A stretch of 64,000 nucleotides of DNA from an uncultured Planctomycetota bacterium (GTDB lineage: Bacteria; Planctomycetota; Planctomycetia; Isosphaerales; Isosphaeraceae), in the NCBI GenBank assembly GCA_963737655.1, contig CAVTTN010000002.1, positions 5,120,001 to 5,184,000 of the forward strand, given 5' to 3'. The position numbers were made by a program, and so were the translations under genes. The notes under the pieces were generated by a model. The model was not told the DNA's origin, ran no database searches, and saw only the letters and a list, made by a program, of their open reading frames with translations. Shown in pieces: positions 1,328-20,667 of the stretch (positions are counted from its first letter, which is position 1; each line of letters begins with the position of its first letter).

Positions 1328-1347
1328 GGTCGATCCGCCTTTCTCGT

Positions 1348-1578
1348 TCACGAATCCGGCCCGGAGGGCGACCGAAGCCGCCGGATCACGGCGAACGGCC
1401 CGGTCCCGAGGAGGACCATCAGCACAAACCCGACGAGCGAGGTCCAGAGCACCAGGTTCAGGACGTCCAGGACGGCCATGACCCACCAATCGCCCTCGAA
1501 ACGCCGCGCCACGGCGAAGACCAGGGCCGCCAGGACGACCAGGCGCATCCATCGAGCGATCGTGAACCGTCGAGCCAT
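1348..1578 (-). CDS. small membrane protein with two TM helices
   Basis: MARRFTIARWMRLVVLAALVFAV... and a second hydrophobic segment; directly upstream of the DUF1570 gene. Confidence 0.55.
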   Translation of the reverse strand: MARRFTIARWMRLVVLAALVFAVARRFEGDWWVMAVLDVLNLVLWTSLVGFVLMVLLGTGPFAVIRRLRSPSGPDS

Positions 1579-1640
1579 CGGCCGATCCTCCCCAAGGTCA
1601 GGATACCCGATCCGCCCGGCCCATGCGCCCCGCAGGATCA

Positions 1641-1818
1641 GCGAAGCCCACCGTTGTGTAGGGCGGGTGAAACCCGCCAACCGGCGGCGGCCCTCGGCCG
1701 CCCTCCAAGATTCCGTGCCCGATCGAGAAGGAAGAGCCTATGGATTGACGGGTTGCACCCGCCTGGTTGGCGGGTTTCACCCGCCCTACACAACGGTGGG
1801 CTTCGCCCACCCTACGGG
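1641..1818. repeat. REPIN-like element: perfect 42-bp inverted repeat of GTAG-type REPs plus an overlapping third REP
   Basis: 1641-1682 (gcgaagcccaccgttgtGTAGGGCGGGTGAAACCCGCCaacc) is the exact reverse complement of 1765-1806; GGTGGGCTTCGCCCACCCTAC at about 1795-1815 is another REP. Confidence 0.85.
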
Positions 1819-1913
1819 GAAACCGGGCGGCCACGTTGACCCGCCCAACCCCCCCGGCTAGATTGACCGGGCGTTCGGCGAGGTCGCGTCTCTCCTTCCA
1901 GGAATCAGCCGAG

Positions 1914-2891: not shown

Positions 2892-2938
2892 TCCGGGGCC
2901 GGAGATGGGCTTTTCGACGGGGTGAGGCGGTTGACTCT

Positions 2939-2995
2939 TCGTAGGGCAGGCCTTGGCCTGCCGTCGGTCTCGGCAGGCCAAGGCCTGCCCTACGA
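2939..2995. repeat. GTAG-type REP doublet (long hairpin) between convergent genes
   Basis: tcGTAGGGCAGGCCTTGGCCTGCCG-tcggtct-CGGCAGGCCAAGGCCTGCCCTACga. Confidence 0.85.
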
Positions 2996-3084
2996 GGGGC
3001 CCAAAGGACAGTTCGGAAGTCAACCGCCACACCCGATCGAAAATCGCACTCGTCCCATTTGGTCCGGGTTTCGGAAGGACGAGG

Positions 3085-3972
3085 TCAGCCCGGGAGCTCC
3101 TCGCGGAGGATCGCGCGGAGGTACTGACCATAATCGTTCTTGAGCGAGCCGGCGAGCCCTTCCAGGGCGGAGGCGTCGATGAAGCCCATCCGGTAGGCCA
3201 CTTCCTCGATGCAGGCGATTTTGAGGCCCTGCCGGGACTCGATCGTCTCGACGTAATTGGAGGCCTGCATCAGGCTTTCGGGCGTCCCGGTGTCGAGCCA
3301 GGCGAACCCTCGGGAGAACTTCTCGACGCGGAGCTCGCCCATTTCGAGGTATTTGCGGTTCACGTCGGTGATCTCCAGCTCCCCGCGAGGCGAGGGCTTG
3401 AGGTTCGCCGCGATGTCCACCACGCGGTTGTCGTAGAAGTACAAGCCCGTGACGGCCCAGTGGGAACGGGGCTTCGCGGGTTTCTCCTCGATCGAGAGGG
3501 CCTTGCCCGAGGCGTCGAACTCGACCACGCCGTATCGCTCGGGGTCCTTCACCGGGTAGGCGAACACCGTGGCGCCGGGCCCGGCCGAGGCGGCCCGGCC
3601 GAGCATGTGGTGGAACCCCTGGCCGTAGAAGATGTTATCGCCGAGGATCAACGCGGCCGGGTCGCTTCCGACGAACTCGGCGCCGATGATGAACGCCTGC
3701 GCCAGCCCCTCGGGCTTCGGCTGGACGGCGTACTGGATGTTCATCCCCACGTGCGAGCCGTCGCCCAGGACGCGCTCGAACCCGCCGATGTCGTGGGGCG
3801 TGGAGATCAGCAAGACCTCACGGATGCCGGCGAGCATCAGGGAGGAGAGCGGGTAATAGATCATCGGCTTGTCGTAGATCGGCAGCAATTGCTTGCTGAT
3901 CGCCCGGGTGATGGGGTAGAGCCTCGTCCCCGAGCCCCCGGCCAGGATGATGCCCTTGGTGCATGTCGCCAT
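3085..3972 (-). CDS. rfbA: glucose-1-phosphate thymidylyltransferase
   Basis: [46 protein letters not shown]. Confidence 0.97.
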
Positions 3973-3975
3973 CGC

Positions 3976-5051
3976 TCACGTCCTCCCTGATGAGGCGCCC
4001 AGCCCCAGCCGTTCCCGACGATACGGGCCGAGGTCACGGCCTCGACCCATCCCGGGTTGTCCAGATACCAGCGGACCGTCTCTCGAAGCCCTTCGGCAAA
4101 CTTGACTTGCGGAGACCAGCCCAACTCCCGTTCGATCTTCGAGACGTCCATCGCGTACCGGCGGTCATGGCCGGGCCGGTCGGTCACGAATCGGATCAGG
4201 TTCGAGCAGGGGCGATGAGGGAGGTCCGCGCAAAAGTCGTCCACGGCCTCGCAGATTGCCCGGACGACCTCAAGGTTCGTCCTTTCCGCTTTCCCGCCGA
4301 TGTTGAACGATTCCCCGGGCCGTCCTCGCTTGAGGACGGCGAGGATCGCGTCGATGTGGTCCTCGACGTGGAGCCAGTCGCGGACCTGCGTGCCGTCCCC
4401 GTAAACCGGCAGGTCGCGACCCTCCAGGGCGTTGAGCGTGACCAGGGGGATGAGCTTCTCGGGGAACTGGAACGGGCCGTAGTTGTTCGAGCAGTTCGTC
4501 AGGAGGGTTGGCAGCCCATACGTGTGATGATACGCCTTGACGAACAGGTCGGCCGCCGCCTTGGAGGCCGAGTAGGGGGAGCGCGGGTCCAGCGGGGTCG
4601 TCTCGGAGAACGCCCCCTCGGGCCCGAGCGAGCCGAAGACCTCGTCGGTCGAGACCTGGAGGAACCGAAAACGTTCCCGGGCCGGGGGTTCGAGCGCATT
4701 CCAGTATTGGCGAGACGCTTCGAGCAAGGTGAAGGCGCCGACGACGTTGGTTCGGAGGAACGCCTCGGGGCCGTCGATCGAACGATCGACGTGGGTCTCG
4801 GCGGCGAAGTTCAGGACCGCCTCGGGCCGGTGCTCGGCCAGGAGACTGGAGACGAGGGCCTGGTCGGCGATGTCGCCCCGGACGAAGACATGGTGGGGGT
4901 CGTCGCGGACGGAATCCAGAGAGGCGAGGCAACCGGCGTAGGTCAGGCGATCGAGGTTGACGACGCGGAATGTGCGGTCGGCGATCGCTCGGCGGACGAA
5001 CGCCCCGCCGATGAATCCGGCCCCTCCGGTCACCAGGATCGTCGGGCGCAT
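3976..5051 (-). CDS. rfbB: dTDP-glucose 4,6-dehydratase (frameshift near 4028; corrected end ...YRRERLGLGASSGRT*)
   Basis: ILVTGGAGFIG, AAETHVDRSI, STDEVFG, YSASKA, DRPGHDRRY; the alternative frame stops 3 nt before the rfbA start. Confidence 0.95.
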
Positions 5052-5378
5052 CCGGGGTCTCGCCTTCGGTCCGTCGTCGTCGGGGAACGGCCGCCTCGGC
5101 CATCCCGGCGCAAGGTCAGGCGGCGGAGGGCGGTCGGGCGTCATTATGCCCGTGAACCCGGGGGGCCGCAAGCCGAGGGATCGGGGCCGATCCGGCCGGG
5201 GACGGCCCCCGGGGCCGGTTCCCGGGGCGTCTCTGAAATTTTTTCAGGAAGACGGCCGGGGCGGGTGTCCCGTTGCGTTTGAAACGCGCCCGCGAGGCGC
5301 GCCGGAGGGGGTTGCGGCACCCGCGGAGCCGTCCTTTCCGTCGCCGATCCGGCTGCCCTCTGGAACTCGGGAACTCTC

Positions 5379-7448
5379 ATGGCGGAAGAAACCATCGATC
5401 CGGGCCTTCTCGAACAGACGAAGAACCAGATCCGCAAGCTGGTGGCCGAGATCGCCGAGCTCGCCGAGTCGGACATCCAGCCGGCGGAGTTCCACGTCGA
5501 GTTCCTCAACCGCGTGGTCGCCGCCGTGGCGGCGTCCGGCGGGGCCCTCTGGCTGCTCGACGGCCGGGGGACGCTCAAGCTCCAGCACCAGCTGGAGTTC
5601 CGCCAAACCGGCCTGCTCGACAACCGCCAGCGGGCCCAGCCCCACGACGCCCTGCTCGGCGTGATGCTCCAGGCCAGCCAGCCCCAGATCATCCCGCCCG
5701 GGGCGGCCGTCGAGGGGATGCCCAACGCCGGCAACCCCACGGCGTTCAGCCTGATCCTGTCCCCCCTGATGGTGGACAAGCAGGTCGTCGGCCTGGTCGA
5801 GATCCTGATGGACCCGACCCGCCGGGCCGCCACCCAGAAATCGACCTTGCGGTTCGTCAGCGACCTCTGCGACCTGGCCGCGCAGTACCTCAAGAACCGC
5901 CAGATGCGGCAGATGATGTCGCAGCAGAAGCTGTGGAACCAGCTCGAAGGCTTCACCCACTCGATCCACCACTCGCTGGACCTCCGCGAGACCGCCTACG
6001 CCGTGGCCAACGACGGCAAGAAGCTCGTCGGCTGCGACCGGCTCTCCGTGGCGCTGAAGATCGGCGGCCGGATGATCGTCGAGGCCGTCTCGGGCCAGGA
6101 GATCGTCGAGCAGAAGGCCAACCTGATCCGCGAGCTGACCCGGCTGTGCAAGGTCGTGGCCCAGTCGGGCGAGGACCTCGTCTACACCGGGACGACCGAG
6201 GGCTTCCCCCCCGAAATCCGGGACGCCCTGGAGGTTTACGTCGATGAGTCCGGCTCCAAGGCGGTGATCGTCACGATCCTGCACAAGCCCGAGACCGACC
6301 CGAACAAGGATAAAGACGTGTTCGGGTGCATCGTGGCCGAGCAGATCGGCGACGAGATGGCCCCGACCGACGCCCAGGCCCGCACCGAGGTCATCGCCAA
6401 GCACGCCTCGACGGCCCTCTGGAACGCCCGGGAGACCGACCGGGTCTTCGGGCTCAGCATCCTGAAGGCGATCGGCTCGCCGTGGAGGTTCTTCCGCGGT
6501 CGGACCCTGGCGAAGATCGCCGCGGTGCTCGGCCTGATCCTCCTGGTCATCGGGATCATGGCGTTCGTCCCCTGGCCGCTGACGATCGAGGGCAAGGGGT
6601 CGCTCTTGCCCGAGGACCGGCGGATCACGTATGCCCCCCTCCAGGGCAAGGTCATCGCCGTCCCGTTCGACCACGGGGACTTCGTGAAGCAGGGCGACGT
6701 CATCGCCCGGCTGGAGAACAAGCAGCTCGAGACCGAGCTGTACAAGCTCAAGGGCGACCTGATGGACGCCCGGAGCAAGCTGTCGAACGTCAACACCATG
6801 CTCCGAAAGAACACCAAGCCCGACGAGAGGCCCCAACTTGAAGGCGAGAGGGCCCAGGCCGAGGTGAAGATCCAGAGCACCCAGGCGCAGATCGAGACGA
6901 TCGAAGAGCAGCAGAGGATGCTGGAGATCAAGGCGCCGGTCTCGGGGATCATCACGACCTGGGAGACGAAGAAGAACCTCCTGAATCGGCCGGTGGAGGT
7001 CGGGCAGGAGCTGCTGTCGGTCGCCGCCCTGGATGGCGAATGGGTCCTGGAAGTGGACGTCCCCGACGACGACATGGCGCCGATCCTCGCGGCCCGGGCG
7101 AAGCTGGAAGGCGAGATCAAGAGCAAGGAAGCCCCGCCCGACGCCAAGCTGCCGGCCTACTTCGTCACGATGACCAACCCCGAGCACCGCTACGAGGGGT
7201 ACGTCCGGCGGGTCGCCTCGAAGGCCGAGACCGTCGAGGGCAAGCACGTCGTCAAGGTGACCGTCGGGTTCAACGAGGACGTGAAGCAGGACTACCTGAA
7301 GCGGAACAACATCAAGACGCTCAGGCCCGGGGCCGAGGTCCGGGCGCGGGTCAAGTGCGGCGAGGCGAAGCTCGCCTACGTGATGCTCCGCGACGTGATC
7401 CAGGTCTGGTACGAGACGGTCCTGTTCCGCTGGCCGTTCCTGAGGTGA
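5379..7448 (+). CDS. GAF-domain + HlyD/membrane-fusion protein
   Basis: N-terminal GAF-like regions (CDRLSVAL), one TM (KIAAVLGLILLVIGIMAFVPWP), lipoyl-like half motifs (APLQGKV...GDFVKQGD; IKAPVSG...VEVGQ) around a coiled coil. Confidence 0.8.
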   Translation: MAEETIDPGLLEQTKNQIRKLVAEIAELAESDIQPAEFHVEFLNRVVAAVAASGGALWLLDGRGTLKLQHQLEFRQTGLLDNRQRAQPHDALLGVMLQASQPQIIPPGAAVEGMPNAGNPTAFSLILSPLMVDKQVVGLVEILMDPTRRAATQKSTLRFVSDLCDLAAQYLKNRQMRQMMSQQKLWNQLEGFTHSIHHSLDLRETAYAVANDGKKLVGCDRLSVALKIGGRMIVEAVSGQEIVEQKANLIRELTRLCKVVAQSGEDLVYTGTTEGFPPEIRDALEVYVDESGSKAVIVTILHKPETDPNKDKDVFGCIVAEQIGDEMAPTDAQARTEVIAKHASTALWNARETDRVFGLSILKAIGSPWRFFRGRTLAKIAAVLGLILLVIGIMAFVPWPLTIEGKGSLLPEDRRITYAPLQGKVIAVPFDHGDFVKQGDVIARLENKQLETELYKLKGDLMDARSKLSNVNTMLRKNTKPDERPQLEGERAQAEVKIQSTQAQIETIEEQQRMLEIKAPVSGIITTWETKKNLLNRPVEVGQELLSVAALDGEWVLEVDVPDDDMAPILAARAKLEGEIKSKEAPPDAKLPAYFVTMTNPEHRYEGYVRRVASKAETVEGKHVVKVTVGFNEDVKQDYLKRNNIKTLRPGAEVRARVKCGEAKLAYVMLRDVIQVWYETVLFRWPFLR

Positions 7449-7520
7449 GGTCAGGTCAGGTCAGGTCGGGCCGGCTCGGCTCGGTGAAAGTTCGGTGGGC
7501 GGGCCTGGCCCGCCGCGGTC

Positions 7521-7543
7521 TGGTGCATTCCATGCACCCTACA
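7521..7543 (-). repeat. single REP of the GTAGGGTGCAT-N3-ATGCACC family
   Basis: tggtgcattccatgcaccctaca, one mismatch to the copies at 10839-10937. Confidence 0.7.
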
Positions 7544-7570
7544 GGTGACCCGCTCCCCGGAGAGACTCAT

Positions 7571-8539
7571 ATGCGACTTTCCAAGAAGCTGATGGCCGTG
7601 GCCGCCGGCGCCCTGGCGATGATCTCGGCGGCGTCCTGGGCGCAGGACTCGCCGACGAAGAGCGAGGAGACGATCGCCGTCTCCGGCAGCCTGGAATGGC
7701 TGGAGAAGTCCGACGTGTCGGCCCTGAAGGAGGGCGTGATCCGCCAGATCGAATTCCAGGTCGGCAAGCGAGTGGCCAAGGACAAGGAGATCGGCTCGCT
7801 CCGGGACGAGATGGCCAAGCTCACCCTGGCCAAGGCCGCGCTCGTGGCCAAGAACACCGGGGAGATCTCCAAGGCCAATGCCCAGAGGATGCTGGCGATG
7901 TCCGAGCTCGCCCGGCTCCAGAGGCTGGAGCTGAAGGGGCCGGGGTTCGTCTCGCAGTCGGAGAAGGAGAAGGCCCAGGCCGAGCTCGCCGTGGCCGACG
8001 CCCTCCGCCAGGTCGCCATGGAGACCCAGAAGGTCAACGAGGCCGACCGCGACCTCGCCCAGCAGGCCGTGGACGACCACGTCATCCGCGCCCCGTTCGA
8101 GGGCGTGATCACCGACCGGATGAAGTTCCCCGGCGAGTCCGTCCGGGCCAACGAGCCGGTCGTCCGGATCGGCCGGACCGACCGCCTCCGCTTCCTCGGG
8201 ATGCTGCCGATCGAGGTCGCCAACCGCCTGAAGGGCAACGAGGTCATCGACCTCCGCCCGACGATCGAGGGGGCCGACCTGCCGATCGAGGGCAAGGTCT
8301 TCCGGGGCCGGATCACCGCCCTGTCTCGCGAGATCACCAGCGTCCGCTCCACCGACGTGCAGATCCTCGCCGAGATCGAGAACTGGCCGATCGACGTGCC
8401 CAAGCCCTCGGCCGCCGAGAAGGAAGCCGGAGCGGCGCTGGACCCGCAGCTCGAGCTGCTCGTCGGGATGAAGGCCGACGCCACGATCTACCTCGGAGGC
8501 GCCGCCCCGAAGGTCGCCGCGAACAAGAAGACGCGCTGA
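7571..8539 (+). CDS. HlyD/RND periplasmic adaptor subunit with signal peptide
   Basis: Signal MRLSKKLMAVAAGALAMISAASWA; coiled-coil hairpin; IRAPFEGVI...PGESV. Confidence 0.85.
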   Translation: MRLSKKLMAVAAGALAMISAASWAQDSPTKSEETIAVSGSLEWLEKSDVSALKEGVIRQIEFQVGKRVAKDKEIGSLRDEMAKLTLAKAALVAKNTGEISKANAQRMLAMSELARLQRLELKGPGFVSQSEKEKAQAELAVADALRQVAMETQKVNEADRDLAQQAVDDHVIRAPFEGVITDRMKFPGESVRANEPVVRIGRTDRLRFLGMLPIEVANRLKGNEVIDLRPTIEGADLPIEGKVFRGRITALSREITSVRSTDVQILAEIENWPIDVPKPSAAEKEAGAALDPQLELLVGMKADATIYLGGAAPKVAANKKTR

Positions 8540-8630
8540 TCCGAACTTCCAGAGCTCAACCGGGGGACGGCAGCCGCCCGCCTCCCCCGGCCTCGCCCGA
8601 TCTCTCCCCTTCTCGAAGGGCCGACGACCG

Positions 8631-10833
8631 ATGAGTGCCGCCCCCACGCTGGCTCCCGCCCTGCCCGCCGGCCAGTCCGCCGAGCAGCTCCAGGTCAAGC
8701 TCCGGCCCGACCTGATCGTCCAGCCCCAGTTCTACGAGGGGATGACCCACTACGTCGTCAAGGACCCGATCGCGCTGAAGTATTTCCGATTCAAGATCGA
8801 GGAATATTTCCTCCTCCAGCAGTTCGACGGCAAGAATACGCTCCAGGACGTCAAGCGCGCCTTCGAGCGCAAGTACCGGCCGCAGACGATCACCGTCGAC
8901 GACCTGATCCGCTTCGCCTCGCAGCTCCACGAGGCCGGGATCGCCCAGATCGACACCCCCGAGCAGGCCAAGGTCCTCATCGAGCGCCGGCGGAAGAACA
9001 AGTGGAAGCGGGTCTGGCAGTTCTTCGCCAACATCCTCTACATCAAGATCCCGATCATCGACCCCGAGAAGCTGCTGACCGGGATGTACCCCTACTTCCG
9101 GTGGCTCTTCACGCCCTATTTCGTCACGGCGAGCTGCGGGCTGATGCTCGCGGCGCTCACGCTCGTGGTCAGCCGGTTCGACGAGTTCTATTCCAAGCTC
9201 CCGGAGTTCCAGAGCTTCTTCAACTGGTACACGATTGTTTATTTTTGGTGCAGTTTGGCGGTCGTCAAGGTCATCCACGAGTTCGGCCACGGCCTCACGG
9301 CGAAGCATTTCGGCGGCGAGGTCCACGAGATGGGGATGCTGTTCCTCGTCCTCACGCCGGCGCTGTATTGCGACGTCACTGATAGCTGGCTCCTGCCGAA
9401 CAAGTGGAAACGGATCTGGATCTCGGCGGCGGGCATCTACGTCGAATGCTTCCTGGCGTCGCTCGCCACGTTCGTCTGGTTCAACACCCAGCCGGGCCTG
9501 CTGAATAGCCTGATGCTGGCGACGATGTTCATCTGCTCGGTCAACACGATCCTCTTCAACGCCAACCCGCTGCTCCGATACGACGGCTACTACGTGATGG
9601 CGGACTGGCTGGAGATCCCCAACCTGCGGATCAAGTCCACCCAGTTCTTCGTCTACCTGTTCCAGGAGAAGGTGCTGGGGCTGGAAGTGCCGGTGCAGAA
9701 CTACATGCCCCGGTCCCGGCGGTTCCTGTTCGTCACCTACGCGATCGCCAGCTATCTGTATCGCTGGGTGGTCACGTTCAGCATCCTGTTCTTCCTCAAC
9801 TCGTTCCTGAAGCCGTACAAGCTGACGTCGATCAGCCGGATGCTGGCGCTGGGGTCGCTCATCCCCCTGATCGCCATGCCGCTCTACCAGATGGGGAAGT
9901 TCGTGAACCAGCCCGGGAGGATGCGTAAAGTGAAGAAGGCCCGCACTGCCGGGTTCTTCGCGGTGGCCGCCGCGATCATCGCCGGTGTCATGCTGATCCC
10001 CACTCCCTTGCGAGTCCAGGGGACCCTGGTCCTGACGGTGGCCCAGCCCGCGATGGTCTATCCCGAGGTCGAGGGCCAGTTGGTGAGGATCCACGTCCGG
10101 GACGGCGACCCGGTGGCCGAGGGGCAGCTCCTGGCCGAGATGATCAACCCGCCGAAGCAACGCGAGCGGCTCCAGCTGACCGAGCAGCAGTCGGTGAACT
10201 TCGCCAAGTATGAGATGTACAACCGCTCGCTCGTGGTGACCGACCACGACCTGGCCAACCAGTTCCGCGCCGACGCCGAGGCGATGGAGCCGGCCATCGA
10301 GAAAGTCAACGAGCAGATCGCCAAGCTCAAGCTCTACGCCCCCAAGGCGGGCATCGCGCTGGGCGTCCCCCATCCCGAGACCACCGGCACCTGGCTGAAG
10401 CCCGGCGGCAAGCCGTTCTGCGAGATCGGCGACACGAGGAAGCTGGAAGCCCACCTGATCCTCGACCAGAGCGACGTGGACCTCGTCCGGCTCGACCGGG
10501 ACGAGGGCTCCTCGCGCCTGGGTGAAGATCTATGGCGACTCCGAGCACACGCGGAAGACCTACGTCCAGGCCATCGCCCGGAAGAACCGCGAGGAGATCC
10601 CCCCCGAGCTCTCCAACCAGGCCGGAGGCGAGATCGCCACCAAGCCCGACCAGAAGAACCAGGGCGTGGTCAAGCCGCTGAACTCGGTGTACGAGGTGAT
10701 CATCCCCGTCTCCAATGACGACCTCAAGCTCCAGCCCGGAATCCGAGGCTTCGCCAAGATCGACGGCGGCCACTGCACCCTGGGATGGTGGATGTGGAGG
10801 CTCGTGAGCAAGACGTTCCACTTCACGATCTAA
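8631..10833 (+). CDS. PqqD/RRE-like + site-2 protease (M50) + HlyD fusion (frameshift near 10510)
   Basis: HEFGH and NANPLLRYDGYY M50 motifs in a multi-TM region; lipoyl/coiled-coil adaptor; C-terminus continues in ORF 10522-10833 (LQPGIRGFAKI). Confidence 0.85.
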
Positions 10834-10836
10834 AAC

Positions 10837-10939
10837 CCGTAGGGTGCATGAAATGCACCATCGTCCCCGTAGGGTGCATGAAATGCACCATCTTCGGTCG
10901 TCGCGAGATCGAAGATGGTGCATTTCATGCACCCTACGG
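10837..10939. repeat. REP cluster: two direct copies and one inverted copy of GTAGGGTGCATGAAATGCACCATC
   Basis: Copies start at 10839 and 10869 (30-bp period); inverted copy ends at 10937. Confidence 0.9.
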
Positions 10940-10984
10940 GTGAGGAAATAAGTCCGCCTGCACGGACGCATTGGCGGACACATG

Positions 10985-11024
10985 GGGCGGGCCCGAGCTT
11001 CTCGGGCCCGCCCTTTTTCTTTTC
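10985..11024 (+). terminator. intrinsic terminator of the secretion operon
   Basis: GGGCGGGCCCGAG-ctt-CTCGGGCCCGCCC followed by TTTTTCTTTT. Confidence 0.85.
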
Positions 11025-11224
11025 GTTCCTACGAGGCCGGGGCGTGTCATTGTTACAACACGACGGGTTCGCTTCCCGGCTTCGGACGTGTCCTCGAGGA
11101 TCGAAGTCGTGCAGGCGATGGGGTTTGGTGCGGGCCGGATTGACCCCGGCGCGGGTCGGGCATGGGGATTGCTTCGCCATTTCGGACCCGAGAGGCTTCG
11201 CGGCGGTTGGGAAAGGATTCCCCG

Positions 11225-12509
11225 ATGGCTCATGTGCTCGACCTGATCTATCTCGGCCTGCTCCTGGCCTTCGGGCCGATGCTGGCCTATCGCTCGTGGA
11301 AGGCCGGCAAATATCGCGACGGATGGTCGGAGAAGGTCCTGGGCAAGGCGCCCCGGCGGATCGGCGACCGGCCGTGCGTCTGGTTCCATGCCGTGAGCGT
11401 GGGGGAAGTCCTCCTGCTCCGCCCCCTGGTCGCGGAGCTCGCCCGGAGGAGGCCGGGCTGGGAGGTCGTCGTCTCGACGACCACGACGACCGGCCTGGCC
11501 GTCGCCCGGAGGACGTTCCCGGACCTCGTCACCTTCTATGCCCCCCTGGACTTCAGTTGGGCCGCCCGTCGCGCCGTGGCGAGGGTCCGGCCGACCGTCC
11601 TGGCCCTGGTCGAGCTGGAGTTGTGGCCCAACCTGATCGCCTCGGCCAAGGCGGCCGGCGCGGGTGGCGATCGTCAACGGCCGCCTGAGCGACCGGAGCC
11701 ACAGAGGGTATCGCAAGATCCGCTGGGCCCTGGGCCCGACGTTCTGGAGGCTCGATTCGGTCGCCGCGCAGACCGAGGAATACGCCGAGAGGTTCGTCGA
11801 TCTGGGCGTGCCGTCGCCCCACGTCCGCGTGACGGGCTCGGTGAAGTACGACGGCCTGGAGGCCGACCGGGGGAACCCTCGGACGGTGGCCCTCCGGCGA
11901 GAGCTCGGGCTGTCGGCGGCCGACGTGATCTTCGTGGCCGGGAGCACGATGGAGGGGGAAGAGGCCGCGGCCCTGGACGCCTTCCGCAAGGCCCGCGTCG
12001 ATCACCCCAGGCTCCGCCTCGTGCTGGTCCCCCGCCACGCCGAGCGGTTCGACCGGGTGGCGGCCTGGTTGCAGGAGGCGGGGGCGAGGGTCGTCCGAAG
12101 GAGCCGTCCGGGGCTGGTCCTGGGTCACGGCGACTACCCTCCGGTCTTCCTGATCGACACCCTGGGCGAGCTCTCGGCGGTCTGGGGCCTGGCGGACGTC
12201 GCGTTCGTCGGCGGCAGCCTGTTCCCGGGCCGGGGCGGCCAGAACATGATGGAGCCGGCGGCCTTCGGGGCGTCGGTGCTGTTCGGGCCGTCCACGGGGA
12301 ATTTCAAGGAGGCCGTCGAGGGCCTGCTCGCCCGCGACGGCGCGAAGCGCGTGGAGAACGCCGAGGCCCTGGCCCGGGCCCTGATGGCCGACCTGGACGA
12401 CCCCGAGGCGGCGGCGGCCCGCGGGGCGGCCGGCCGGGCGTTCGTCCTGGCCCAGAACGGCGCGTCGCTGAGGACGCTGGCCGAGCTCGATCGCCTGGTC
12501 GGCGACTGA
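11225..12509 (+). CDS. waaA: 3-deoxy-D-manno-octulosonic acid (Kdo) transferase (frameshift near 11662)
   Basis: WFHAVSVGE, APLDF, ELELWPNL, then NGRLSDRS, GSVKYD, PRHAERF, DTLGEL, GGQNMMEPAA across two frames. Confidence 0.92.
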
Positions 12510-12726
12510 TCGGGACCGGGCAAGATCCCCCATCTTCGCCGGGCTCTCGGGACGGCCCGAGATGGCCCCGATTCGGCCGATTTTGCGGGTCGGTCCCCGG
12601 TTGCACGACCGATGGGGTTTCGTCAGACTGTCACGACTCGCGAGGCCCTCGGAGGCCCCGCGCGGCGACACAAGGCCGCCGACCCTTCCGTTCCGTTCCG
12701 ATCCGAGTTTTCTGCCGGAGACAGCC

Positions 12727-13098
12727 ATGAGCGAGACCGAAGGCGTTCAACAGCCCCAGGGCCAGCAGACCGAAGTCCACGTGGACGACTCCTCGACGCT
12801 GCCGTCGTACTCGAACTTCTGCCGGGTCACGGCCACGCCCGAGGAAGTGATCCTCGACTTCGGCCTGAATCCCCAGCCGTTCGCCACCGGCCGGCAGGAC
12901 GTGAAAGCCAATCAGCGGATCGTCATGAATTTCTATACCGCGAAGCGACTGCTGACGGCCCTGGGGATGACGATCCAGAGGCACGAGGGCACGTTCGGCT
13001 CGATCGAGCTGGACGTTCGCCGCCGGGCCGGGACGTTCCAGCAGACCCAGACGCGGCACCCCTCCGGCTCGGTCGGCCCCCAGGGGATCGTCGAGTAA
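12727..13098 (+). CDS. DUF3467 family protein
   Basis: YSNFCRVTATPEEVILDFG...RIVMNFYTAKRLL..L...IQRHEGTFG.IE. Confidence 0.85.
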   Translation: MSETEGVQQPQGQQTEVHVDDSSTLPSYSNFCRVTATPEEVILDFGLNPQPFATGRQDVKANQRIVMNFYTAKRLLTALGMTIQRHEGTFGSIELDVRRRAGTFQQTQTRHPSGSVGPQGIVE

Positions 13099-13129
13099 GC
13101 GTCGGATCGACGGCGGCATGACGGATGAG

Positions 13130-13172
13130 ATCGGGCGGGCCCTCCCTCGGTGGGGGCCCGCCCGATTTTTTT
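13130..13172 (+). terminator. intrinsic terminator
   Basis: ATCGGGCGGGCCC...GGGCCCGCCCGAT followed by a T run. Confidence 0.8.
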
Positions 13173-13424
13173 GCGCATCTCGCCCAGAGTCCGCCGGACT
13201 CGCCGATCGTGCGGGCTTTCCGGGTCCAAATGGTTGATCTCCGGGGTGGAGATCGGCCGATCCTGAGTGTCAAGACGAGTGGTCCGCGAAGCCCGGACGC
13301 GCCGCGAAGGCCGATCGGGCCCGGTCTTCGACTCATTCGACCTTCGCGGACGTGTCGATACCGTAGGGTGCCGGGAGCCCGGCCTCGATTCAGGACGGAC
13401 GAGTCCCGCCCAAGGAGATAAGGA

Positions 13425-16400
13425 ATGTCTCACTCTTCCCGGCCGGACCCGCGCGGAGACGCGAATCGGCCCCGTCGTCGCGTCCGGATCGAGAACCTGG
13501 TCACGCTGGAGGATCGGATGTTGCCGGCCCCGGTCGTGGCCTCCACGATCCCCCAGGCCAACTTCACGGCCGCCGCGGCGCCGTCGAACGACAACCTCGG
13601 CACGGTCTCGATCTCGGCGGTCGCCAATTCGGCCAGCGCCGCGGCGCTGACCTCGGTGGCCCAGCTCACCTCGGCCAACTCCTTCGGCGGCGACATCGTC
13701 CGCATCAAGGCCGGGCCCGGGGGCGACTTCGGCAAGGGCGTCTACGCCATCAGCCGGGGCGCCGGCGAGAACGCCGACGCGACCTCGCGAGACCCGAGCA
13801 TCCAGGCCCCGATCAACCGGCCCGGCGTGATCTACCGCGTCGATCCGGCCACGGGCAAGACCTCGGTCTTCTTCGACCTGAACACCGTGATCAACCAGCT
13901 GCAGACCGGAGGGGACGCCTCCAACGGCTCCTCGCCCGGCTCCGGCCTGCTGAACTGGTACGATATCGCCTTCGACCCCGAGGGGTATTTCGACGGCAAA
14001 CCGTCGATGTTCGTCAGCTCGCTGTCGCAGAGCGACCCGACCAAGAACGTGATCTACCGGATCGGGCCGGACGGCTCGTTCATGGGCCTGTATATCCAGT
14101 TCACGGCCGGGGCGACCGAGCAGAACTTCACCCGCCAACCCAGCGCCCTGTTGATCCCCCCGCCGGAGCAGCAGAGCTTCCTCAAGGGCCTGTTCGTCGG
14201 CCAGGGCACGGGGCTCACCCAGAATAACGGAACGGCCGCCGGCGGGTTCGCGGCCCTGTTCTTCGACGCCAACCAGTTCTCGCCCGGGGCGAACCTCAAC
14301 GGCGACACCCTGCCCAACGGCGTGACGGCCACCCCGCTGACCTACGGTCCGCAGGTCGGCCTGACCTCGGCCAACTCGTCGTACACCTCGCCGGTGTATT
14401 CGGCGTTCAGCGACTTCGGCACCCCCGGGGCCGGCGGGGTCGCCGCGACCTTCGGCCTGAGCGGCGTCCAGGGCCTCCAGGGCGAGATCCCGATCGGAGG
14501 GGCCGGGACGATCATCCCCGACTTCACCACGGCGCCGGCCATCGCCGGGACCACCGACGGCGACGCCGCCGTGATCACCCCGTTCCGACGGTTCCAGGAC
14601 ATCGCCTTCGACCAGTACGGCTACTTCTCCTACGGGACCAACGGCAACACGCTCACCGCCGGGGCCGCGCCGACCTACGAGGGGAGCCTGTTCGTCTCCG
14701 ACCTGGCCACCGGGCTGACCGTCCCGGTCAACACGGCCGCCGCGCTGGGCGGGATCGCCGCCGGGACCGCCGTGAACATCCCGATCCAGGGCGCCGGCGG
14801 CCCGATCGGCGTGACCCTGAGCCCCAACGGCACCGTCGTCCCGATCTTCACCAACGGCAACACCACCAACGGCACCAACCTCGGCGGCCGGATCTTGCGG
14901 GTCAGCCCCACGGGCGTGGTCTCGGTCTTCGCCGACAATTTCCACACCAACGGCGCCCAGGACGCCTCCAGCTTCGTCTCCAGCGAGCTGAGCATCTCGT
15001 TCTCGGCCGACGGCACGACCCTCTACGCGGCCGACGACGACGGGATCTGGCAGTTCAAGACCGTCACCGACCTCGCCGGCGCGACCTCCGGCTCGCTGAT
15101 CGGCCTGAACGACCTGAGGACCCTGGGCGTCCCCTACGACGGCCAGGATTCGGCCGTGGCGATCGTCGATACCGGCGTCGATTCGCTGACCCCGAACTTC
15201 CGGGGCCGGGTGGCCACGGGCCTGAGCGTCGTGACCAACGGGCCGGGCAACGACGACACGGCCGCCGCCGTCAACGGCCACGGGACGCTCGTCGCCGGCG
15301 TGGTCGCCCAGTTCGTCCCCCAGGCCACGTTGGACCCGGTCAACGTCTTCACCCCCAACCAGGTCGCGCCCGGCAACTCGGCCGGGGCCGCCTCGGTGAC
15401 CGGCGCCACCACGCCCCAGAACGTCTACACCGGGCTGGATTACGTCGCCAACAACCCGTTCGTCCGCGACCCGATCCGCCCGAACACCCAGGACCGCGTG
15501 ATCGCCGCCAACGTCGGCTTCGGCACGACCACGACCTATGGGACGGAGACCCAGGCCTACAACCGGTTCCCGCAGATCACCCTGGCCTTCGAGAACGAGT
15601 TCGCCAAGTTCCGGCGGATCGGGATCCAGGGGATCGCCGCGGCCGGCCAGTTCGGCACCCCTCAGGGCGCGACGGTCACCGGCGGATCGGTCACCGGCGG
15701 GGACGTCCAGGGGATCGCCTTCCCGGCCGTCCTGGACACGGTGATCTCGGTCACCGGGAGCTATTCCTACCCGTTCACCGCCCTGCCCACGTCCAGCCCG
15801 GTCGATCCCGGGACCGGCGTGATCCCCCGGCCTCCCGGGCCGGCCCTGCTCTACGGCAGCCCGGCGGGCAACACGATCACCGGGGCCGGATCGGCCGCCA
15901 CGGTCGCCTCGGCCGATGCCATCGTCTTCAAGGACAAGCTCCTGGCCTCGTCCAACCGCAGCCTGACGACCGACTACACCGCCCCCGAGCTCGACCTGCC
16001 CACCTTCCGCCGGACCGCCGCGTCGACCATCGGGGCCACCACCACGGCCGTCGGCGCCCCGCCGGACTTCAACGACTTCTCCGAGGGCGGGACCTCGCTG
16101 TCCTCGGCCGTCGTCACCGGCTCCTATGCGATGGTCGCCTCGGCCCTGGACTACTGGCAGACCATCTCCAACAACAACGGCCTGACCGTCGATGGCTACC
16201 TGACCACCCCGGCCGGCGTCAACCAGTTGAACTTCGGCAAGGGAGGGATCGAGAACCTCTCGGCCTACTCCAACCCCGACGGCATCAACTCGATCCTCCA
16301 GTGGACGGCCGTCCCGGCGAGCGACTCGCTCAACACGGTCGATCCGGTGACCCCGCCGACCCTGTTCCAGAGCCCCAACTACCGCGAGTTCGCCCGGATC

Positions 16401-17714
16401 GACATCGGCAACGCCATCGCCGCCATCGAAGGCTCGATCGCGCTGAACTACCTGTTCGCCCACGGCACCTTCGACATCATCGACGCCAACAAGAACGGCC
16501 TGGTCACGGCCCAGGAGCTCCAGAACTTCGCCGACAACGCCGCCAACATCGGCATGCCCGAGGCCGGGGTGATGGCCCGCTTCCTGGGCGGGACCGCGCG
16601 AATCCCCACCACCGGCTTCCAGCAGACCGGCGCCGGCGAGTCGCCCGATCAGCCCGACGTCCTCCAGCGCCGCTTCAACTTCTTCGACTACGCGGCCGAC
16701 GGCCAGCTCAACGGGGCGATCTCGATCGCCCAGTACCAGGCCCTGGCCAAGAACCTGCTGCCCACGCCCGACGCCTTCACCGTCACCGACCGCCAGAGGG
16801 CCTCGGTCGATGGCTTCCTGCTCTCGCCCAACCCGCTGAGGAACTACTCGGACCTCCAGCACACCCTGCCGACCTACGCCTTCATCCCCAAGAGGGTCGT
16901 GGCCCGGTTCAAGAACATCTCCCCGGCGAAGTTCGGGATCAAGGGGAGGACCCAGGGGCCGGTCTTCACCCTGTTCAGCCAGGGAGGCGCCCAGTCCACC
17001 ACGGGCAAGACCCCGGTCAAGGGGAACACCACGACCAAGCCCGCGGGCTCGACCACGACCACCACCACCAAGCCCGCGGGCTCGACCACGACGACGACCA
17101 CGACCAAGCCCGCGGGCTCGACCACGACCGGGACCACCACGACCACCGGTTCCTCGACCGCCACGCCCCCCTCGGCGACGGGGACGACCGGCTCGGGCCA
17201 GGCCGCCACGGCCTCGGGGGTCAACTACATCGCGTCCTTGCTGAACAAGGCCCCGGCGGCCAGCCCCGTGACGGTCAACTCGGCCGCGACGAGCTCGACC
17301 GCCACGCCCTCTCCGGTGACGACCAACGGCGCGACCACCGGGGCCCCGGCCGCCGAGAGCGCCTCGGGCGTGGGGACCTCGCTGACCTCGGCCTCGCTCG
17401 CGGCGATCTCGACCCCGGCGAAGGCCGGGACGCCCGCCGCGACCACCGCGTCGTCCTCGACCGAGAACGTCCAGGTCGCCATGTCTCGACAAACCGCCGC
17501 CAAGCTCGCGAGGAACGAGGCCGAGGGCAAGTCCCAGGTCGCCCCAAGCGGCTCGCACGTCGCGCCGGTCGGCTCGGGCAACGGCACCGGAACCGCAACC
17601 GGATCGTCCGCCCCGGCCGCCGCCGCCCACTCGACCAAGAAGAAGTCCAAGACCTCCACCAAGTTCGACCCGTTGAACCCGTGGAAGTCGATCACCAACA
17701 TCTTCAAGAAGTAG
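13425..17714 (+). CDS. large secreted S8 (subtilisin-like) serine peptidase with LExR leader, EF-hand-like motif and Thr/Ser-rich tail
   Basis: RRRVRIENLVTLEDRMLPA leader; VAIVDTG, GHGTLVAG and GGTSLSS catalytic triad; DANKNGLVTAQEL. Confidence 0.8.
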   Translation: MSHSSRPDPRGDANRPRRRVRIENLVTLEDRMLPAPVVASTIPQANFTAAAAPSNDNLGTVSISAVANSASAAALTSVAQLTSANSFGGDIVRIKAGPGGDFGKGVYAISRGAGENADATSRDPSIQAPINRPGVIYRVDPATGKTSVFFDLNTVINQLQTGGDASNGSSPGSGLLNWYDIAFDPEGYFDGKPSMFVSSLSQSDPTKNVIYRIGPDGSFMGLYIQFTAGATEQNFTRQPSALLIPPPEQQSFLKGLFVGQGTGLTQNNGTAAGGFAALFFDANQFSPGANLNGDTLPNGVTATPLTYGPQVGLTSANSSYTSPVYSAFSDFGTPGAGGVAATFGLSGVQGLQGEIPIGGAGTIIPDFTTAPAIAGTTDGDAAVITPFRRFQDIAFDQYGYFSYGTNGNTLTAGAAPTYEGSLFVSDLATGLTVPVNTAAALGGIAAGTAVNIPIQGAGGPIGVTLSPNGTVVPIFTNGNTTNGTNLGGRILRVSPTGVVSVFADNFHTNGAQDASSFVSSELSISFSADGTTLYAADDDGIWQFKTVTDLAGATSGSLIGLNDLRTLGVPYDGQDSAVAIVDTGVDSLTPNFRGRVATGLSVVTNGPGNDDTAAAVNGHGTLVAGVVAQFVPQATLDPVNVFTPNQVAPGNSAGAASVTGATTPQNVYTGLDYVANNPFVRDPIRPNTQDRVIAANVGFGTTTTYGTETQAYNRFPQITLAFENEFAKFRRIGIQGIAAAGQFGTPQGATVTGGSVTGGDVQGIAFPAVLDTVISVTGSYSYPFTALPTSSPVDPGTGVIPRPPGPALLYGSPAGNTITGAGSAATVASADAIVFKDKLLASSNRSLTTDYTAPELDLPTFRRTAASTIGATTTAVGAPPDFNDFSEGGTSLSSAVVTGSYAMVASALDYWQTISNNNGLTVDGYLTTPAGVNQLNFGKGGIENLSAYSNPDGINSILQWTAVPASDSLNTVDPVTPPTLFQSPNYREFARIDIGNAIAAIEGSIALNYLFAHGTFDIIDANKNGLVTAQELQNFADNAANIGMPEAGVMARFLGGTARIPTTGFQQTGAGESPDQPDVLQRRFNFFDYAADGQLNGAISIAQYQALAKNLLPTPDAFTVTDRQRASVDGFLLSPNPLRNYSDLQHTLPTYAFIPKRVVARFKNISPAKFGIKGRTQGPVFTLFSQGGAQSTTGKTPVKGNTTTKPAGSTTTTTTKPAGSTTTTTTTKPAGSTTTGTTTTTGSSTATPPSATGTTGSGQAATASGVNYIASLLNKAPAASPVTVNSAATSSTATPSPVTTNGATTGAPAAESASGVGTSLTSASLAAISTPAKAGTPAATTASSSTENVQVAMSRQTAAKLARNEAEGKSQVAPSGSHVAPVGSGNGTGTATGSSAPAAAAHSTKKKSKTSTKFDPLNPWKSITNIFKK
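17028..17150 (+). repeat. intragenic tandem repeat (TKPAGSTTT..) x3
   Basis: accaagcccgcgggctcgaccacgac at 17034, 17067 and 17103. Confidence 0.85.
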
Positions 17715-17968: not shown

Positions 17969-20667
17969 TCAGTCCATCGCCTGGGCGAAGACTCCGACGG
18001 CCAGGGCGACTCCCTCCGGGGCGTCGAGCGCCTCGGTCAGGTCGATTTCCCGGCCTCCGTCGCGGCCCTTCATGAGCGTTTCGATCAGGGCGATGGTGGT
18101 GTCGATCACGTCGGGCTGGATCAGGATCAGGTCGCCGGGGCGGGCCTCGCGGACCACCGCGTCCACGGCCTTCAGAGCGCCCTGGAACTCGCGGACCTCG
18201 CCCACCCTTGAGCCCGATTCCAGGCCCTTGCGGAACAGGCTCATGATCTCGCCCGGCTGGCGGCCCCGGACGTACTGGTCCTCGTACAGGACCACGCGAT
18301 CGAAGGCGTCGCCCAGCATCTCCCCCTGGCGGACGAGGTCCTCGTCCCGGCGGTCCCCGGCGGCCGAGTAGACCACCGTCCGCCGTTCCTGGGGGAACGG
18401 CTCGATCGCGTCGATCAACGCCTGGAGGGCCGAGACGTTGTGGCCGTAGTCCAGGATGATCGTCGCCCCGTTCATCTCCAGGAGGTTGAACCGGCCCGGG
18501 ACCGAACCCATCGCGCCCGGAAGCTCTCCAGGCCCGTGCGGATCGCATCCATTGAGAGCCCCAGCGACCACGCCGCCGCCGCGCTCGACAGGGCGTTCTC
18601 GATCTGGAACGACACCCGCCCGCCGTGGGTCAGAGGGACGTCGGCCAGGGCGATCAGGGAGGTCTCGCGGGGCCCTTCGGCCAGGACGATCCACTCGTCC
18701 CTCACGAACGCGGCCCGGCCCCCCTCGGAGCGGTGGGCGGCGATCACCGGCAGGTCGCCGTCCTGGGCGAAGAAGACCACGGAGCCGGGGCAATGCTCGG
18801 CCATCGCCGCCACGAGCGGGTCGTCCGCCTTCAGGACCGCCGAACCCTTCGGGCCGACCGCCTCGACGATCGTCCGCTTGACCTGCGAGAGCTTGTCCAG
18901 GGTGTGGATGTCGTGGAGGCCCAGGTGGTCCCCCTCGCCGATGTTCGTCACGACGGCCACGTCGCAGCGATCGAACGCCAGGCCGGCGCGGAGGATGCCG
19001 CCCCGGGCGGTTTCCAGGACGGCCGCCTCGACCCGGGGATGCATCAGGACCGCCGAGGCGCTGCCGGGGCCGGAGCAATCGCCCGACTCGATCCGGCGCT
19101 CGTTGATGTAGATCCCCTCGGTGCACGTCATCCCGACGGTCCGCCCCGTCCCCCGGACGATGCTGGCGATGAACCGCGTGACGGTCGTCTTGCCGTTGGT
19201 GCCGGTCACGGCGACCAGGGGGACCCGGCCGTTCTGGCCGTCGGGGAACATGAGGTCGATGATCGCCTCGCCGACCGGCCGAGGGCTGCCGGAGGAGGGC
19301 TCCAGGTGCATCCGCAGGCCCGGCCCGGCGTTGACCTCGACGATCACGCCGGCCTGGTCTTCCAGGGGGACGGCGATGTCCCGGGCCACGACGTCGATCC
19401 CGGCCACGTCCAGGCCGACCATCCGGGCCGCCTCGATGCACCGGGCGGCGACCTCCGGATGGACGCGGTCGGTCACGTCCTCGGCCGTCCCTCCGGTGCT
19501 CAGGTTCGCGTTGCGGCGGATCGGGACCTTGCGGCCCTCGGCGGGGACCGATTGCGGGTTGAGGCCCTGATCGGCGAGGACGGCCAGGGCGATGTCGTCG
19601 AGCTTGATCTTGCTCAGGGAGGTGGCGTGGCCGTCGCCTCGGCGGGGGTCGGTGTTCTTGATCGCGACGAGTTCGGCGACCGTCGATCGGCCGTCGCCGA
19701 CGACGTGGGCCGGCTCCCTCCGGGCGGCGGCGACCACGCGGTCGCCGACGACCAGGACGCGGTAATCGTCGCCCGGGGCGAACGTCTCGACGATCACCGA
19801 GCCGTCGGAGCTCTCGGCATGGGCGGCGTCATGGGCGGCGCGGACCTGGGCCTCGGTCGTCAGGTCGGTGGCGACCCCTCGGCCCTGGTTGCCGTATCGG
19901 GGCTTGACCACCACGGCCACGCCCAGCTCCCGGGCGGCGGCCCAGGCGTCGTCGGCCGAGGCGACGGGCCGGCCGGCGGGCACCGGCACGCCGATCGGGG
20001 CCAGGAGCGACCGGGTCAATTCCTTGTCCTGGGCGATCTCCTGGGCGATCGCGCCGGTGCGGTCGGTCTCGGCGGTCAGGATCCGCCGTTGCCGGGCCCC
20101 CCAGCCGAGCTGGACGAGGCTGCCGGTGTTGAGCCTTCGGGTCGGGATGCCTCGGTCCTTGGCGGCCTTGACGATCGACCCGGTGCTCGGTCCGAGCCGG
20201 GCCTCGTGGAGGATGTCGCGGATCCGGGCGACCTCGGCCGCCACGTCGAACGGTCGGTCGTGGAGGGCGGCCAGGACGAGCTCTCGGCCGACCTTCAGGG
20301 CCTCCCGGGCGGAGGTCTCCTCCTCGTACTCGACGACGACCTTGTACACGCCCTCCTCGCTCGTCTCGCGGGCCCGGCCGTAGCCGACGTCCGAGCCGGC
20401 CAGGGCCAGGAGCTCCAGGGTGACGTGCTCGAGGATGTGGGCCGGATAGGTCCCCCGGCGGAGCCTCTCGAAGAACCCTCCGCGCGTGCCGACGCTGCAC
20501 CGGTGCTCGACCATCGTCGGCAGCCAGGCCATCAGGCGGTCATTGAAGCCGGGGGCCTCGTCGGACGATGTGTCCTTCAAGGGGCCGAGGTCCACCCAGG
20601 CTTCGAGGACGGGGAAATTCGCCCAGAGGTTCGGTCCGCGCAGTGCCAGGACCTTCCGGAATTCCAT
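17969..20667 (-). CDS. cphA: cyanophycin synthetase (frameshift near 18517)
   Basis: LRGPNLW, EHRCS.G.RGGF..RL..GT, LGPST, ATP-grasp (VVKPRYGNQGRGV, NLSTGG, EVNAGPG), Mur-ligase domain (VTGTNGKTT, ETARGGI, PGRFN, DYGHN, GDRRD). Confidence 0.95.

Follow-up and report, generated by a model that had tools for sequence, protein, structure and literature searches.

The arrangement closest to the one described here is the module reported by Kamneva, Poudel and Ward in 2015 (PMC4452313), composed of SecA_DEAD, Peptidase_M50-HlyD, GAF-HlyD and HlyD proteins with or without an OEP, in which the M50 protein was proposed as the membrane component; its biological role is called unknown, and the available text of that paper names no substrate, RRE, leader cleavage or DUF3467. 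A planctomycete export signal, RRLxxExLExRxLLA (PF07595, Studholme 2004 as cited in PMC8567305; LEPR-XLL corresponds to NF012209), was reported for 52 genes of Tuwongella, 20 of them detected, with the export machinery left unnamed in the accessible part of that study (PMC8567305). Type I systems and PCATs use an adaptor-TolC conduit, the N-terminal leader being taken off at the inner membrane, and the cargo of PCATs with an active C39 domain is given as below ~10 kDa in the available part of PMC8277102. The daptide protein MpaP/DapP (NF041824) joins an RRE to an intramembrane site-2 protease and is said, in the accessible text, to remove an ELExMEAP leader (bioRxiv 10.1101/2023.03.08.531785). 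Finally, accessory SecA2 is a second SecA paralogue tied to the export of particular, often large proteins.

The region 5379-17714 of a 64,000-nucleotide stretch (the window) from an uncultured bacterium of the Isosphaeraceae was analyzed (Table 1). Three consecutive HlyD-type proteins unaccompanied by a pump or TolC had been predicted, and were confirmed as a GAF adaptor, a signal-peptide adaptor and an RRE-M50 adaptor, with no ABC, RND or OEP genes found by domain search between 5379 and 17714. In the first one, a single copy in the genome, two GAF matches are followed by one hydrophobic stretch (residues ~373-391) and HlyD_3. In the second, the Sec-like N-terminus was called by eye and the RND_mfp match is under the cut-off. 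The fusion is ~733 aa in relatives. The genome holds one such module, and as in the Kamneva module the same three adaptors stand together without an ABC in the locus, while a SecA_DEAD protein without most of the wing/scaffold is unlinked, the short SecA being sometimes encoded elsewhere in the published cases too (available text of PMC4452313). The earlier statement that related HlyD/M50 loci occur in PVC genomes was correct (PMC4452313). Both halves are already in print, the trio as the 2015 module and the leader as the 2004 export signal, and what appears to be new is the linking of both; our literature search, covering few subscription journals, returned no work joining them. We consider it fairly probable that the trio forms the core, in inner membrane and periplasm, of a TolC-type exporter for LExR-leader proteins that works without an ABC transporter and which would cut the leader and export the chain N-terminus first.

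Table 1. Features of the region 5379-17714, in window coordinates
Feature	Position	Strand	Evidence and remarks
GAF-GAF-TM-periplasmic adaptor, 689 aa	5379..7448	+	Pfam GAF, GAF_3, HlyD_3
Periplasmic adaptor, Sec-like N-terminus, 322 aa	7571..8539	+	HlyD_3, E 2e-9
RRE - M50 site-2 protease - periplasmic adaptor fusion	8631..10833	+	Peptidase_M50 and adaptor matches
REP-like palindromic repeats, three copies	10839..10937	.	End of trio; fourth copy at 7522-7542
Terminator-like hairpin	10984..11024	+	14-pair stem (10984-11014), 12 G-C, T run; closes the three-gene unit
kdtA/waaA Kdo transferase	11225..12509	+	Domain match; between M50 and DUF3467; a 1-base deletion near 11658 splits the gene
DUF3467 protein, 123 aa	12727..13098	+	PF11950, E 2e-21
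Cysteine-free 1429-aa protein, subtilase domain, EF-hand-like loop, Thr/Ser/Ala tail	13425..17714	+	Likely cargo
Basic leader ending in LExRxL motif	13425..13526	+	Sequence; LEDRML at 13506

The region is probably organized in three transcription units. The DUF3467 and S8 genes had been described as following the trio on the same strand, and the strand stands, but kdtA, probably a bystander, and a terminator intervene. On these grounds, together with the gene orientation in relatives, we reject a one-operon reading. The REP-like repeat has four matches versus none in shuffles. A second terminator-like hairpin follows DUF3467 (13149-13162); since 12 such sites were found versus 6.4 +/- 2.8 in shuffles, only the long hairpin after the M50 gene stands out. 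The same-strand order is unusual in the family: where the M50 module and the S8 gene are linked, they converge in 18 of 21 genomes. In addition, the M50 fusion gene is 2 bases short near 10510 compared with three relatives (in a fourth, a gap at this place keeps the frame), and its last 103 codons (10522-10833) lie in a different frame. This frameshift, the interruption of the region by kdtA and terminators, and a tandem order that no other one of the 21 linked family genomes shows might suggest that the module is decaying in this organism and that unrelated genes have come to lie next to it by chance. However, 6 of the 28 orthologous loci tested are frameshifted too, as are the essential genes kdtA and canonical secA, so that the M50 frameshift is probably an assembly error; moreover, each of the 27 high-quality genomes of the family has both M50 and S8, and the two are linked in 21 of the 53 family genomes having both. 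We regard this reading as highly improbable.

The domains of the fusion were compared with solved structures using the predicted model of a same-genus orthologue. Its N-domain has the PqqD-like fold of an RRE, with three strands and three helices, and matches the leader-binding RRE TbiB1 (Z 10.7, rmsd 2.6, 83/84 aligned) and the lasso B1 RRE (Z 10.6); of 16 members, 12 have a PF05402 match in this part at E <= 1, with a best value of 5e-4. The adaptor part has an adaptor fold, matching MacA (Z 15.7, rmsd 6.1, 245 aligned; Foldseek E 1e-13). As in site-2 proteases, the M50 part carries HExxH and the NPDG-type aspartate in a membrane domain: H216/E217/H220 and D318 are invariant in 95/95 alignment rows, and HExxH and NPLxxDG occur in 94/94 homologues. 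Its model matches RseP (Z 10.0, rmsd 3.6, 133 aligned) and SpoIVFB (Z 9.8). Sensing is the usual role of GAF domains, and anti-sigma factors are the usual targets of M50 proteases; these points, with the two structural matches, favor regulated intramembrane proteolysis, in which GAF would sense a signal, the protease would cut a regulator and the leader proteins would be exported otherwise. A regulatory role for the GAF protein is also proposed in the accessible text of PMC4452313. Nevertheless, such a scheme leaves the RRE, the three adaptors, and the operon TolC and upstream giant of the plasmid loci (see below) unexplained, and no sigma factor or regulator is among the annotated genes of the module in the five loci, so that we regard it as very improbable.

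In NCBIfam, the protease part is matched best by the daptide leader peptidase (E 5e-51), whose precursor motif ELExMEAP resembles the (V/L)ExLExR motif of the leaders here. The NF041824 score (174 versus a cut-off of 300 bits), the added periplasmic adaptor and the lack of modification enzymes or short precursors (no daptide precursor or Dap enzymes in the neighborhood) set this fusion apart from MpaP/DapP. Complex prediction weakly supports binding of the leader by the RRE: the score was 0.56 versus 0.00 for the best control, with a contact agreement between runs of at least 88% and a partner pLDDT of at least 57, in a range (up to 0.60) that holds only 18 of the 116 solved pairs (157 in total) and both of the 2 mismatched pairs (215 in total) passing the mark, and with a predictor that may remember solved RRE-leader complexes. 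The proposal that the M50 fusion acts as leader peptidase is supported, as an inference, by the RRE fold, the intact zinc motifs and the tight co-occurrence with leaders described below.

The leaders share the (V/L)ExLExR motif and end in LL-(S/A/T). The regular expression retrieved 93, of which six were removed by eye before the composition counts, leaving 87 leader-bearing proteins in the genome (roughly 90), a count that leaves out some ten further plausible ones whose N-region is less basic. As for the planctomycete export signal in the available part of PMC8567305, the same N-terminal motif is carried by large surface-type proteins, here up to at least 5,288 aa. They contain 0.7 Cys per 1000 residues, whereas the proteome has 7.6 and Sec-like proteins 6.3, and just 2 of the 87 have a hydrophobic N-region. 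The 1429-aa protein, predicted to have an LExR leader without a Sec signal, indeed has the motif and neither a hydrophobic signal nor cysteine, although the "giant" of the original prediction is no giant by the standard of this genome. Its subtilase-type triad motifs occur in order (D582, H619, S891) and are kept in orthologues, making it a putative protease; a PDB entry is matched at E 6e-6, with no Pfam Peptidase_S8 match at E <= 0.01. Occurring in 56 of 61 family genomes, it is a core gene of the family. Its leader is divergent, listed by neither PF07595 nor NF012209 at E <= 1, and those of the orthologues are nearer to the consensus. We infer, as had been proposed, that it is a substrate. 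We reject a single locus dedicated to it in view of the 87 leaders versus one module. Given the one module, the unlinked short SecA and the 87 nearly cysteine-free leader proteins, the trio looks like a general export pathway in this genome.

Co-occurrence was profiled in 181 planctomycete genomes, all of one phylum and, being related, not independent samples, so that Fisher tests overstate the association. The M50 fusion is found in 54 of them, and the curated model NF012209 has matches in 28 of these versus 2 of the 127 others. By three leader searches and neighborhood scans, leaders were detected in 37/54 fusion genomes (30 inspected and real, 7 uninspected), whereas the matches in 10 of the 127 fusion-less genomes are all shadow-frame or non-leader readings. 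Within the survey, leaders thus occur only alongside the M50 module, while in 17 of the 54 no real leader was found with short models and ~40 candidates scored per genome in draft genomes. PF07595 alone is noisy in GC-rich DNA, as 8 of its 18 matched genomes lack the module and all 8 are false (shadow-frame or non-leader); two false matches in module genomes (G129, G149) were removed. The home-built leader profile drew partly on surveyed genomes and is circular for those. G015 (100% complete) is without matches for M50 fusion, DUF3467, short SecA or leaders, in a family where 9 of 10 genomes have the fusion. Outside the phylum, 63 records match and the evidence consists of five plasmid loci among them. 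A giant with a leader lies directly upstream in all five (four by translation, one by annotation), and in four the operon includes TolC.

The assignment of DUF3467 to the system is supported, the gene being present in 38/54 genomes with the fusion versus 7/127 without and adjoining the module in 27/80 loci. Its suggested role as a chaperone found no support: the predicted model, three strands and a helix, gave weak best matches to COMM domains (Z 5.3, rmsd 2.9, 58 aligned), with Pur-like folds also at ~Z 5, and the 50 fold matches listed do not include SecB. It is likely a soluble accessory of the export system.

A genome search for TolC and SecA_DEAD partners, as had been suggested, gave an unlinked short SecA and, on the TolC side, one distant orphan candidate. 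The short SecA (682 aa, C2:4438427-4440475) has Walker A, DEAD and motif VI intact, along with the preprotein-binding domain, but stops soon after motif VI, without wing and C-terminal parts; the profile also matches canonical SecA, and the two were separated by frame length and position. It is found in just 26/54 module genomes; three of the five plasmid loci are without it, and the E. coli plasmid does not encode it anywhere along its length. In contrast to accessory SecA2, no SecY2/Asp genes were seen at these loci, which have adaptors and TolC instead, and the short SecA occurs in about half of the genomes. There are 23 OEP matches genome-wide, and the OEP survey set no module-specific TolC apart. 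The candidate (G000:C2:2787584-2789869) is a distant match of 122 bits whose family also occurs in the module-less G015, and an OEP adjoins the module in just 1 of the 80 planctomycete loci (one query). In published Tuwongella proteomics, probable module orthologues, paired by size, annotation and gene order rather than sequence, are in membrane fractions.

The retained motifs of the short SecA would also suit a two-step route, in which SecA or short SecA feeds ordinary SecYEG, the M50 fusion is only a special signal peptidase, and adaptors and TolC pick up the chain once it reaches the periplasm. Canonical secA lies directly upstream of kdtA-DUF3467 in five family loci, the channel role of M50 is a predicted one, and in the accessible part of a Chlorobium preprint symbiosis proteins, two of them LEPRxLL giants, are reported to remain periplasmic without the partner. 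Against this, the leaders have no hydrophobic h-region, the missing wing and C-terminal parts are tied to SecYEG contact in the available text of PMC4452313, and the scarce cysteine fits a bypass of the periplasm, although it is not proof. We consider the two-step route unlikely. An ordinary type I system with a protease, borrowing a conventional ABC transporter encoded elsewhere, could draw on a C39-domain gene, an 822-codon frame at C2:6007459 with the size of a peptidase-containing ABC transporter. Yet this gene is unlinked, no ABC is annotated within the five plasmid operons, and the RTX pattern is found in 0/87 cargo proteins, whose LL-(S/A/T) ends are also not double-glycine leaders. Going by the available text of PMC8277102, the locus further differs from type I systems and PCATs in having no ABC/C39, a zinc intramembrane protease with RRE, three different adaptors, and cargo up to thousands of residues. 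Such borrowing is very improbable.

In the exporter that we favor, the RRE would bind the (V/L)ExLExR motif in the cytoplasm, as RREs bind RiPP leaders, and the M50 zinc site would cut near the LL-(S/A/T) junction, the M50 helices putatively serving as protein channel. The unfolded chain would be pushed by a SecA-type ATPase (the short SecA where present, perhaps canonical SecA otherwise) through a mixed funnel of three adaptors to an outer-membrane factor encoded elsewhere, possibly the orphan candidate, and DUF3467 and the GAF domains may help dock cargo or motor. The pathway would be general in the family, with the neighboring S8 protease as one conserved cargo. More tentatively, this may be an unnumbered secretion system where an RRE-guided intramembrane protease replaces the type I ABC transporter, reading and removing LExR leaders, and a SecA-type motor drives chains of up to thousands of residues via the three-adaptor funnel and TolC, as a general route for tens of surface proteins in Planctomycetia; if so, it would settle the question raised by the export signal of 2004. 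Many of the largest surface proteins of planctomycetes carry this tag, with no exporter named in the papers found, and its link to a conserved, expressed, single-copy module joins two old observations into one testable idea. If true, the route would recognize leaders in the manner of RiPP systems and cleave by intramembrane proteolysis, with SecA as motor and TolC as conduit; it would extend from planctomycetes to plasmids of enterobacteria and could export very large proteins without a Sec signal.

The window covers C2:5120001-5184000 of assembly G000 (7.6 Mb, 87.7% complete), and its closest named homologues are from Isosphaeraceae planctomycetes. The original prediction had placed DUF3467, the 1,429-residue S8 ORF and all three adaptor genes correctly. 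Its gene row stood except for the Kdo transferase gene kdtA, which it had missed between the M50 fusion and DUF3467. Compared with relatives, the M50 fusion and kdtA are each 1 or 2 bases short and, since the canonical secA and 6 of 28 orthologous loci tested are frameshifted too, both defects are probably assembly errors. The cyanophycin synthetase, ABC transporter and glycosyltransferase genes also appear frameshift-split, which fits assembly indels. Downstream of M50 come REP-like repeats and a strong hairpin resembling a terminator.

Features of the window and of related loci
Feature	Location	Position	Strand
GAF adaptor	window	5379-7448	+
Plain HlyD adaptor (middle)	window	7571-8539	+
RRE-M50-adaptor fusion	window	8631-10833	+
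kdtA	window	11225-12509	
DUF3467	window	12727-13098	
S8 protease	window	13425-17714	+
Cyanophycin synthetase	window	17972-20667	
ABC transporter	window	21887-23496	
Glycosyltransferase	window	24152-25236	
LExR-leader gene	window	32549-34780	
LExR-leader gene	window	47429-47893	
Epimerase-like gene and neighbour	window	52919-57022	
Orphan OEP (TolC-type)	G000, C2	2787584-2789869	
WD40-fused adaptor	L033	4360-6255	
WD40-fused adaptor	L036	4578-6503	
E. coli plasmid locus	L146 (NZ_CP022155.1)	1-13803	

Among 61 family genomes, the S8 gene occurs in 56 and the M50 fusion in 57, each being found in all 27 high-quality genomes, so that the S8 protein is a family core gene. By hand count, the two lie within about 12 kb in 21 of the 53 genomes having both (18 convergent, 1 divergent and 2, including G000, on the same strand), and five family loci show secA-kdtA-DUF3467-S8 as a row that faces the trio. 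Given these orientations and orders, the S8-M50 linkage is conserved in the family, but the apparent single operon in the window is a local rearrangement. It is marked by the epimerase-like gene and its neighbour, which flank the GAF adaptor in relatives and sit about 45 kb off in G000. A further 80 loci were scanned for neighbours of M50; almost all are planctomycete, and many sit on short contigs. Counts of loci with each neighbour beside M50 were: GAF adaptor 58, plain adaptor 60, DUF3467 27, short SecA 12, leader protein fitting the strict pattern 8, and OEP query 1.

The expected co-occurrence of module and leaders was borne out in 181 genomes of one phylum, of which related ones are not independent samples. 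The survey detected the M50 fusion in 54. Matches to NF012209 occurred in 28/54 genomes with the fusion versus 2/127 without, those to PF07595 in 10/54 versus 8/127, and those to our own, partly circular, leader profile in 27/54 versus 2/127. The leader matches in all 10 module-less genomes that gave any were translated, without yielding a single N-terminal leader; two matches in module-bearing genomes also proved false on translation. Leaders are therefore counted in 37/54 module-bearing genomes (30 inspected, 7 uninspected; four found beside M50 genes) versus 0/127 confirmed; none was found in the other 17, possibly owing to low search sensitivity. DUF3467 was found in 38/54 versus 7/127 genomes and the short SecA in 26/54 versus 2/127, those two near contig ends. 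In G015, the M50 fusion, leaders, DUF3467 and short SecA are all missing, in a family where 9 of 10 genomes have the fusion.

DUF3467 homologues in module-less genomes (G045, G086, G148, G186, G197 (family f33), and the controls Thermus, Bacteroides and Methanosarcina) indicate that this family has other roles too. The suggested chaperone function finds no structural support, as the model (pLDDT 75) matches only COMM- and Pur-like folds, weakly. The Tuwongella protein is described as abundant and partly soluble in the available part of PMC8567305.

In G000, 454 leader-motif matches were found, 156 with coding sequence downstream (122 N-terminal, 34 internal), and a basic region precedes the motif in 93/122 N-terminal versus 3/34 internal matches. 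After six were dropped by eye, 87 leader proteins remained, some frameshift-truncated, with a median of 565 aa and a maximum of 5,288 aa. Their Thr, Ser, Gly and Asn contents are high, and they contain 0.7 Cys per 1,000, the figure being 7.6 for the 5,903 called genes and 6.3 for 671 proteins classed as Sec-like by a heuristic; a hydrophobic N-region is present in 2/87, and no RTX pattern was found among them. A strongly basic C-terminal 30-mer, perhaps a surface anchor, occurs in 26/87, to which frameshifts may contribute. The window holds two further leader genes (table). The S8 protein has all three catalytic motifs, kept in orthologues, an N-terminal region of roughly 550 residues with no Pfam match, and a Thr/Ser/Ala linker followed by a basic tail at its C-terminal end.

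An intact same-genus orthologue of the M50 fusion was modelled (mean pLDDT 79.8) and matched the leader-peptide-binding RREs of TbiB1 (Z 10.7, rmsd 2.6, 83 aligned) and lasso B1 (Z 10.6), the site-2 proteases RseP (Z 10.0) and SpoIVFB (Z 9.8), and MacA (Z 15.7). HExxH and NPLxxDG are present in 94/94 homologues. Its top NCBIfam match, under cut-off at E 5e-51, is to the intramembrane peptidase of daptides, an RRE-site-2 protease described, in the source text available, as taking off leaders with the motif ELExMEAP, which would resemble the (V/L)ExLExR core of the G000 leaders. Leader binding finds weak support in the predicted complex of RRE-M50 and the S8 leader, which scored 0.56 versus 0.00 for the best control (partner pLDDT at least 57, contacts shared at least 88%). 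Of solved pairs, 116/157 reached the mark used, as did 2/215 mismatched pairs; 0.56 falls in the range up to 0.60, which holds just 18 solved pairs and the two mismatched ones, and the predictor may have memorised solved RRE-leader complexes. G000 has one copy of the M50 module. Two or three copies of the fusion in G014, G089, G123, G137, G189 and other planctomycetes suggest cargo-specific paralogues.

The search of G000 for partners recovered a short SecA (682 aa, with Walker A, DEAD and motif VI, ending soon after the latter), unlinked at 0.7 Mb from the module, and 23 OEP matches. One orphan (table) is the sole, distant, match to an OEP flanking the module in another planctomycete. Also unlinked is one gene with a C39 domain and the size of an ABC transporter. 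Some planctomycetes have a middle adaptor that carries a fused WD40 beta-propeller; its probable orthologue in Tuwongella, predicted to be a lipoprotein, has an LFQ signal far above its two neighbours in the published data available.

Outside the phylum, there are 63 matching plasmid records. In the five opened (Methylosinus, Pontibrevibacter, Niveispirillum, Thalassospira, E. coli), a leader-bearing giant is immediately upstream in 5/5, TolC in the operon in 4/5, DUF3467 present in 3/5 and the short SecA in 2/5. The E. coli locus, bounded by IS elements, encodes an Ig-like giant with a LExR leader, TolC and three adaptors; no SecA was found on this plasmid. Plasmids of Citrobacter and Hafnia carry a near-identical M50 fusion, as do 24/5,426 E. 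coli genomes.

The module is a real, partly described system. On balance we favour a one-step, ABC-free exporter, every functional step of which we infer: the RRE would read the leader, M50 would cut it, a SecA-type motor would push the chain and the three adaptors would funnel it to TolC. It would work like leader-cleaving type I secretion, although the module, with no ABC transporter, falls outside that class. The channel and the energy source are the weakest parts, the latter because the short SecA is often missing. In the main rival, cargo crosses SecYEG and M50 is a special signal peptidase; we consider this unlikely.

As far as the available text of PMC4452313 goes, the module was described there, with M50 suggested to be the pore and the short SecA to be the ATPase, and no substrate is given. 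The accessible part of PMC8567305 presents the tag, credited to Studholme 2004, as a signal presumed to direct export and counts 52 tag-bearing genes in Tuwongella. Membrane fractions contained the probable module proteins in that study, and the short SecA was detected in the SDS fraction. A 2026 preprint, in the portion available, presents its own LEPRxLL giants without known transport signals and highlights sapC and tolC nearby; PMC10885120, PMC10952558, PMC4446572 and PMC8277102 offer, in their available parts, general background only. Our literature search turned up no publication that links the tag to the module. New here are the presence-absence test with inspected matches and a genome whose single module stands against about 90 scattered cargo genes.
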